A stretch of 32,000 nt of DNA from Candidatus Jordarchaeales archaeon (lineage in GTDB: Archaea > Asgardarchaeota > Jordiarchaeia > Jordiarchaeales > Freyrarchaeaceae): contig JAWCFL010000003.1 in NCBI GenBank assembly GCA_038858525.1, positions 88,105 through 120,104 on the forward strand. Reading direction: 5' to 3'. The position numbers and the translations under genes were made by a program. Under the pieces are notes generated by a model. It was not told the origin of the DNA and did not search any database. It saw only the letters and a program-made list of their open reading frames with translations. Below, piece by piece: positions 9,542 through 9,949 of the stretch; the stretch's first letter is position 1, and every line of letters starts with the position of its first letter.

Positions 9542-9637
9542 TTAAATCAAGGATAAAAGTTTTTCTAGAAAAAGCCGACGATGGCTTTCACACCAAAAAA
9601 TTATAAGGGCGAGTTTAATAAACATTAAACCCGAATG

Positions 9638-9766
9638 GGGCTGGTAGCTCAGAGGCTGCCGCCGGGAAACTAGGTAGAGCTCCAAAGGAGCTCGCCTAAA
9701 GCGCCGGACTAAATATGGGTGAAGCTTTTAACCCGGCGGCCGCGGGTTCGAATCCCGCCCAGCCCG
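9638..9766 (+). tRNA. tRNA-Lys(UUU) with three introns (9653-9669 at 15/16, 9678-9699 at 22/23, 9708-9723 at 30/31)
   Basis: Acceptor GGGCTGG/CCAGCCC plus discriminator G, D stem GCTC/GAGC, anticodon stem CCGGG/CCCGG with loop CT-TTT-AA, T arm GCGGG-TTCGAAT-CCCGC. Removing 17+22+16 nt gives a 74-nt cloverleaf. CCA not encoded. Confidence 0.9.
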
Positions 9767-9949
9767 CTAATCTCCTTCTACGTTCTAAGTGAATGACCGC
9801 TTGTTTTGAGAGTGGAATCACATTATAGGCCCTTTGAGTGTTTTAGGAGGAGAAAAGAAAAAAAGATATATAGGAAGGAACGTTTTATTGACCGCATTTC
9901 CGGAAGGAGCTTTCTTACTTAAGTGTTCGTGGTGAAGAGGGGCTACGTT

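Follow-up and report, generated by a model that had tools for sequence, protein, structure and literature searches.

The window, a stretch of 32,000 nucleotides from a Candidatus Jordarchaeales archaeon, carries at positions 9638-9766 of its forward strand a tRNA-Lys(UUU) gene that is split by three tiny introns. The source genome is a 2.09-Mb, 92.7%-complete assembly obtained from hot-spring metagenomes. With introns allowed, ARAGORN called a tRNA-Lys(ttt) at C3:97742-97871, equivalent to window positions 9638-9767; default ARAGORN and a scan at the Rfam gathering threshold found no tRNA in the window. The parts of the locus are the following:

9595 to 9607, forward strand: A-rich stretch and TTATAA box, some 30 nt 5' of the tRNA, a likely archaeal BRE/TATA promoter
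9638 to 9766, forward strand: tRNA-Lys(UUU) gene with three introns, 129 nt, CCA not encoded
9638 to 9652, forward strand: exon 1, 15 nt; acceptor 5' strand, nt 8-9, D-stem 5' strand, A14 and G15
9653 to 9669, forward strand: intron 1, 17 nt, at position 15/16, placed by the bulge-helix-bulge (BHB) scan and orthologs; in order A, GGC (inner helix), UGCC (loop), GCC (inner helix), GGG (pairing with CUC 9648-9650), A and AA
9670 to 9677, forward strand: exon 2, 8 nt; remainder of the D-loop and G22
9678 to 9699, forward strand: intron 2, 22 nt, at position 22/23
9700 to 9707, forward strand: exon 3, 8 nt; A23 to G30
9708 to 9723, forward strand: intron 3, 16 nt, at position 30/31
9724 to 9766, forward strand: exon 4, 43 nt; G31, anticodon loop CTTTTAA, anticodon-stem 3' strand onward

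Exon 4 continues with the variable loop, the T-arm, the acceptor 3' strand and the discriminator G. When joined in silico, the exons yield a 74-nt RNA that ARAGORN called as a canonical tRNA-Lys(ttt), and RNAfold folded it as a cloverleaf with the anticodon arm CCGGG / CUUUUAA / CCCGG. In the 92.7%-complete assembly, a pattern scan turned up no second tRNA-Lys(UUU) gene, and no tRNA-Lys(CUU) paralog was found there for a covariation test between paralogs.

Searches of genomes and metagenomes provided four distinct sequences from two genera, and comparisons among them are non-independent: the window gene, L032 and L002 (same genus or very close) and L003 (a second genus), with L031 and L033 identical to L003. 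One intron-3-centred pattern scan of each collection, metagenome and genome, returned one new variant, L032, plus duplicates of L003. The reads of four DNA runs held no strain variants, but identical copies and the 3' halves of foreign tRNAs. All three introns are kept in 4/4 distinct orthologs with nearly invariant exons, and a AAAAATATAAG-like box lies at equal distance from the gene in L002, L003 and L032. In a sister family (six genomes) the tRNA-Lys(UUU) gene is interrupted at 15/16, at 30/31 and once in the T-arm, and lacks intron 2. Across the four orthologs of the window's family and the six sister genomes, the intron positions are conserved and the loops diverge. The T-arm intron of the sister family is about 30 nt long and follows GCGGG/GCGAG (around positions 1500-1670 in loci L037-L042); L042 has an apparent further insertion near the variable region.

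The site of intron 1 is common to all orthologs of both families. Its register, 9653-9669, was chosen because it results in the D-loop AGCTAGGTA in 4/4 orthologs of the window's family; in most sister genes it gives a D-loop of AG followed by YTAGGTA, and AGCTAGGTA is found uninterrupted in a related tRNA contig. The borders implied by an earlier, sequence-only reading of this DNA (9654-9668) leave an 11-nt D-loop that is unlike between orthologs, and this register was rejected; the intron itself stands, its borders having been slightly off, and 9653-9669 fits the orthologs better.

The three short introns are probably protein-spliced introns of the BHB type, and the tRNA gene is in all likelihood functional. 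Splice motifs were assigned by a rule in which exon positions -6 to -3 at the 5' site and intron positions -6 to -3 at the 3' site form a 4-bp central helix; on both strands a 3-nt bulge follows, with the cut behind the second bulge base. By this rule, intron 3 has a central helix between CGCC (9702-9705) and GGTG (9718-9721), the bulges GG/A and AA/G (slashes mark the cuts), an outer helix between AAAG (9698-9701) and CTTT (9725-9728), and almost no inner helix, which is a relaxed form of the motif. The BHB scan returned it as 4/4/1 in three orthologs, and in L032 it was placed by alignment. For intron 2, the only register with a 4-bp central helix by manual count pairs AGGT (9672-9675) with GCCT (9694-9697) and has the 3' bulge AA/A (9698-9700); the inner hairpin GAGCTCC/GGAGCTC shows two compensatory pairs among orthologs, and the 5' splice site lies within this predicted hairpin. 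Intron 1 is again relaxed: its central helix CUC:GGG comprises 3 bp and one mismatch, the bulges are AAA and AGA, and a 3-bp outer helix is accompanied by a 3-bp inner helix GGC:GCC closed by a loop of 3-4 nt.

These motifs draw on the same bases. As the sequence-only reading had recognized, the outer helix of intron 3 uses the AAA of the intron-2 bulge, so that A9698-9700 belong to motifs 2 and 3, and A9672 is used twice, pairing with T9645 in the outer helix of intron 1 and with T9697 in the central helix of intron 2. Because bases are shared, the motifs cannot all form at once, and the mutual exclusivity proposed there holds. With regard to the enzyme, two matches to the tRNA-intron endonuclease domain (PF01974) above the cut-off were found in the genome, in reading frames of 193 and 198 amino acids:

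C3:81835-82089, reverse strand: endonuclease-domain gene, about 6 kb before the window start
C43:5978-6235, forward strand: second endonuclease-domain gene

By their domain content, the two proteins may be the subunits of an enzyme able to cut relaxed motifs.

Beyond its own splice motif, intron 1 is complementary to the last exon. The pairing first seen in the letters is exact: 9655-9666 (GCTGCCGCCGGG) pairs with 9732-9743 (CCCGGCGGCCGC) at 11 of 12 positions, with a single mismatch of T9657 opposite C9741, and nine consecutive G-C or C-G pairs connect 9658-9666 with 9732-9740. The strands of this long-range helix are:

9658 to 9666, forward strand: intron-1 strand GCCGCCGGG, whose last 7 nt equal mature nt 25-31
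9732 to 9740, forward strand: exon strand CCCGGCGGC, nt 39-43 and the first four variable-loop nucleotides, 44-47

The outermost pairs (9655/56:9742/43) need the first two T-stem bases, and their formation is not predicted. The competing stem named in the sequence-only reading is also present: CGCCGG (9702-9707) is complementary to CCGGCG (9733-9738), a native-like stem. Exon 3 therefore holds both the 5' strand of the intron-3 central helix (CGCC) and that of the native-like stem (CGCCGG).

The 3' half of intron 1, GCCGGG, is identical to mature nt 26-31, the 5' strand of the anticodon stem. This segment serves the intron-1 motif, with GCC pairing with GGC within the intron and GGG pairing with the D-stem CUC, and GGG (9664-9666) is common to this motif and the long-range helix. 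Together with three loop bases, the same six bases make the 9-bp G-C helix with the anticodon-stem 3' strand. Since the bases of the long-range helix are mostly those of the intron-1 motif and equal nt 26-31, intron 1 is a decoy copy of that strand. The description of intron 1 as an internal splicing guide was the wrong analogy: the helix specifies no splice site and decoys one strand of a stem. The helix was also considered as part of a BHB motif and rejected, because its exon strand is without a 3-nt bulge and the AAA that follows the helix sits at a multiloop junction. Separately, the self-complementary CCGG occurs at 9662-9665 and at 9704-9707, and when 5' prefixes that end ahead of the 3' strand are folded, these two stretches join intron 1 to exon 3.

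To judge chance complementarity, 5000 composition-matched shuffles of the 17-nt intron 1 were scored for their Watson-Crick run against any exon. Of the 5000 shuffles, 8 contained a run of at least 9 bp; for L032, whose run is 8 bp long, 32 of 5000 did as well. The 6-bp core that L003 retains was reached by 1186 of 5000 and is within chance.

Folding was calculated with a nearest-neighbour model, with the enzyme, tertiary structure, base modification and kinetics outside it. RNAfold runs on the precursor and its intermediates gave the picture that the sequence-only reading had anticipated, with the helix formed, the native-like stem absent and the intron-3 motif able to form. The long-range helix is part of the minimum free energy (MFE) structure of the precursor for the window gene and two same-genus orthologs, L002 among them. 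In the full precursor of the window gene it has a probability of 0.97 at 37 C and 0.68 at 75 C; taken together, the window gene and L002 span 0.97-0.99 and 0.68-0.90 at these temperatures. The native-like stem (9702-9707:9733-9738) is then near 0 and the central helix of intron 3 reaches 0.29-0.57. Within the genus, the state with the long-range helix beats the state with the native-like stem by 5-9 kcal/mol. In L003 the helix has a probability of 0.16 at 37 C.

The two helices are coupled in these calculations. Forcing the intron-3 central helix gives the same ensemble energy as forcing both helices, and therefore nearly all conformers that present the intron-3 motif carry the long-range helix. 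Deleting intron 1 from the window gene lowered the intron-3 central helix from 0.29 to 0.00 and raised the native-like stem from 0.00 to 0.78. At 70 C, the wild-type sequences gave the intron-3 helix probabilities of 0.35-0.61 versus means of 0.04-0.27 for intron-1 shuffles, and only 0-5 of 60 shuffles matched the wild type. A swap of the inner helix of intron 1, which keeps its own motif and breaks the long-range helix, reduced the intron-3 helix from 0.35 to 0.07 in the window gene and from 0.56 to 0.09 in L032 (70 C). Deletion, shuffle or swap lowered the predicted intron-3 motif in 4/4 orthologs, with return of the native-like stem; the drop is strong in the window gene and L032 but merely mild in L002 and L003. 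In folds of growing 5' prefixes, the intron-3 helix rises only after the 3' strand has emerged, when the long-range helix can form.

The calculations suggest the following sequence of steps. In the unspliced transcript, the long-range helix would outcompete the native-like stem 9702-07:9733-38. This would free CGCC (9702-05) for GGUG of intron 3, whose motif would then be presented beside the intron-2 hairpin. At the same time, the helix would sequester bases of the intron-1 motif. Excision of intron 3 would add G31 and complete the anticodon stem, which would then compete for the 3' strand, and intron 1 would thereby be released and cut last. We favour the reading in which the helix, very likely present in primary transcripts of the genus, steers folding in favour of intron 3 (and intron 2) and delays intron 1; taken as a whole, and judged on the modelled ensembles, it is an evenly balanced proposition.

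The splicing order follows from the model in part. Relative to the long-range helix, the intron-1 motif costs 11-14 kcal/mol in the full precursor, 8-10 without intron 3 and 5-7 without introns 2 and 3 (6.6, 2.0 and -1.8 over the same three states in L003); because this cost falls as introns 3 and 2 go, the model predicts that intron 1 is cut last. The stronger claim of the sequence-only reading, that intron 3 is first, is not forced, as the loss of either intron 2 or intron 3 leaves the motif of the other possible. Once intron 2 has been removed, the new junction still allows the outer helix of intron 3, and removal of intron 3 frees the AAA bulge of intron 2. As for the role of chaperone that had been ascribed to intron 1, the coupling to the intron-3 helix in the folds speaks for it, while the absence of covariation and the sister introns without the pairing speak against.

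The comparison with orthologs is where the strongest competing reading gains ground. Here the complementarity would be incidental: the GGC...GCCGGG that intron 1 needs for its own motif happens to match a common CCGGG/CCCGG stem with no effect on rate or order, and splicing in the cell would be governed by the endonuclease, the tertiary fold of the tRNA and further proteins. We regard this as a serious contender, its probability somewhat short of even. GGC and GCCGGG are present in 4/4 orthologs, with loops of UGCC, UACC, AGCU and GGA. The long-range helix amounts to 9 bp in the window gene, 8 bp in L032, 9 bp with one G.U in L002 and 6 bp in L003; the loop bases that extend it vary among the orthologs and are lost in L003, so that extension beyond 6 bp is limited to one genus. 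Its exon strand is nearly invariant. Covariation, which the sequence-only reading had looked to orthologs for, is absent: among the four orthologs no compensatory change occurs, six pairs are invariant and two changes are one-sided. The invariance of those six pairs is explained by the intron-1 motif, leaving no conservation beyond other constraints, and the conserved core is itself of a length that chance supplies (about 1190 of the 5000 shuffles).

The sister family points the same way. Its intron 1 is 29-30 nt long with an internal hairpin and carries GGC...GCCGAG in 4/6 genomes, its intron 3 is about 30 nt with a strong inner helix, and its anticodon stem ends in CUGG/CCAGG in 5/6 (L042 differs). 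In this family, intron 1 has no complementarity to the anticodon 3' strand of its own tRNA (CCAGG), so the same intron-1 skeleton is found in 4/6 sister genomes with no partner. Since the sister skeleton GGC...GCCGAG exists without the pairing, the core GCCGGG differs from the ancestral form by a single transition, and the splice motif of intron 1 accounts for it. The CCGGG/CCCGG anticodon stem also occurs in tRNA-Lys(UUU) of the distant families of L004 and L009, which again favours coincidence.

Other features of the window family are harder to reconcile with an incidental match. A 9-bp all-G-C helix that is predicted to be 5-9 kcal/mol more favourable than its competitor is physically hard to ignore, and three species of the genus keep 8-9 pairs even though the loop could otherwise vary freely. 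Specific to the window family are the transition from GAG to GGG, the loss of inner hairpins in introns 1 and 3, and the genus-limited extension in the loop. The transition weakens the central helix of intron 1 (U-A to U.G) and completes the decoy. In the sister family the inner hairpins make the intron-1 and intron-3 motifs self-sufficient, and both motifs are found in the MFE structure of 2/4 genes folded; the window family lacks these hairpins. Weighing both sides, we put the prospect that the helix was selected, as opposed to being tolerated as a by-product of constraints on intron 1, at about one in three. The full proposal, that intron 1 is a selected decoy in cis that would hold the 3' strand while intron 3 is cut and would then be displaced, triggering its own excision, is offered tentatively and appears to us doubtful on the folding models.

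A further reading is that the helix would be a misfolding trap or brake, which delays maturation, hides the intron-1 motif and blocks the anticodon stem, either as a kinetic checkpoint or as a tolerated, mildly harmful feature. With only intron 1 left, the long-range helix keeps a probability of 0.97 in the window gene, 0.75 in L032 and 0.55 in L002, versus 0.01-0.44 for the mature anticodon stem (L002 is near balance, 0.55 versus 0.44), and in the genus the intron-1 motif is never the predicted state, even without introns 2 and 3. The value of 0.97 without introns 2 and 3 means that the model overrates the helix or that the helix is a partial trap. Yet this is the sole tRNA-Lys(UUU) gene found by the scan, so selection should act against any strong interference; the extension, which a single change in the loop could abolish, nevertheless persists in the genus, and the predicted intron-3 motif is raised by the very same helix. 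We rate a trap as improbable. The least probable reading is that the exon-intron model itself is wrong (a decaying pseudogene, for instance, or other processing, with the pairing outside a splicing context): the model is built from DNA, the central helix of intron 1 has just 3 bp and a mismatch, and the 5' site of intron 2 is inside a predicted hairpin, but divergence is concentrated in the intron loops and nearly absent from the exons, splicing in silico gives a canonical tRNA, the sister family has the shared intron positions, the promoter-like box is conserved and the assembly scan found no alternative tRNA-Lys(UUU) gene.

Returning to the balanced proposition of a helix that favours intron 3, other tRNAs of the genome carry the intron-3 type by itself. 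tRNA-Val(GAC) (C1:25772-25864, reverse strand) and tRNA-Val(UAC) (C25:8386-8477, forward strand) have a 16-nt intron at 30/31, the sole intron in each, with the architecture and ends of tRNA-Lys intron 3 (CGCC../A...GGCGA[AC]/G, slashes again marking the splice sites). From their sequences, the 30/31 introns look like one intron family common to the three tRNAs. Because the Val tRNAs carry this intron alone, a helper is not generally needed for the intron type, a further point in favour of incidental complementarity. The native-like stem of both Val tRNAs is weaker (CCAC:GUGG), and in tRNA-Lys, with its all-G-C stem, intron 3 faces stiffer competition than in the Val tRNAs. Other 30/31 introns in the genome are confined to these two tRNAs, which provide no independent replicate of the design, and no other D-loop intron of the intron-1 type was found in the genome. 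Both Val genes encode CCA, unlike the Lys gene.

Related elements occur more widely. An element resembling intron 2 (...G[CG]CTAA/AGC at 22/23) is present in the tRNA-Lys(UUU) of L009 (G033, a distant family), and the same element is found in a multi-intron tRNA-Ile(GAU) of the window's genome (C6, reverse strand, from 70944). Sequence similarity suggests that the intron-2 type may move between tRNAs or be repeatedly gained, the sister tRNA-Lys being without it. L004 (G016) has a 103-nt tRNA-Lys(UUU) with the stem CCGGG/CCCGG and a single intron, roughly 30 nt long and placed elsewhere in the D-loop. Abundant contigs of other hot-spring archaea (runs X9, X11, X12 and X14) contain tRNA-Lys-like genes with a 30/31 intron; in one of them the D-loop AGCTAGGTA is unbroken and the stem begins with the G-C-rich GCGG, which would be a natural case of intron 3 without intron 1.

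At the scale of the genome, ARAGORN with introns allowed detected 11 tRNAs, and the Rfam tRNA model gave 14 matches, 5 of them above the cut-off. Almost all tRNA genes of this genome must be disrupted past detection by standard tools.

Two known kinds of pairing between introns and exons resemble the one described here. The internal guide sequence of group I introns defines a splice site and belongs to a ribozyme; as in tRNA-Lys, an intron segment pairs with exon sequence, but here no splice site is defined and cleavage is by a protein enzyme. In the anticodon-intron (A-I) pairing of eukaryal and canonical archaeal pre-tRNAs, pairs between intron and exon make the splice sites accessible to the endonuclease. 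Those pairs belong to the motif of the intron that is cut; in tRNA-Lys the paired bases form no part of a motif as a helix, and their effect would fall on another intron.

Ordered processing has precedents in archaea. In multi-intron pre-tRNAs of Crenarchaeota, it is established that the motif of the last intron forms only after the others have been processed and that relaxed motifs are cut by a multi-subunit endonuclease (Sugahara 2007 and Tocchini-Valentini 2009, as summarised in PMC3978253). The likeness to these Crenarchaeota/Thermoproteales genes extends to two or three short BHB-type introns, non-canonical sites and overlapping motifs. As portrayed in that summary, order arises there from nested introns, whereas the introns here are non-nested and one of them would pair with the distant exon strand nt 39-47, aiding the motif of another intron and masking its own; the comparison with Tocchini-Valentini 2009 is made through the summary, and similar pairings may be drawn in the original article. 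Within the Asgard archaea, 92-95% of the tRNA genes of Freyarchaeia/Atabeyarchaeia have introns, often non-canonical, and more than half have several (PMC11291895). The few tRNAs that ARAGORN detected (11) are consistent with the intron-rich tRNA genes of this clade reported there. The locus probably belongs to the same class, the sister tRNA-Lys(UUU) sharing the 15/16 and 30/31 sites; PMC11291895 counts introns, without folding or splicing order. Relative to the sister family, introns 1 and 3 of the window family are much shorter and intron 2 is extra.

The locus is thus plausibly a twist, as modelled, on the known ordered splicing of multi-intron pre-tRNAs. Ordered splicing of several introns is already established; what may be new is that pairing between one intron and a remote exon strand aids another intron. 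If the complementarity is incidental, the gene is one further multi-intron tRNA in a clade known for them. If the proposal is true, the precursor would have a strand-exchange timer built in, and this would be the first case of a tRNA intron aiding the splicing of another. Intron sequences would then carry folding information, which would help to explain the persistence of minimal introns, and the case would bear on how one endonuclease recognises numerous weak motifs that overlap, each at its proper turn.
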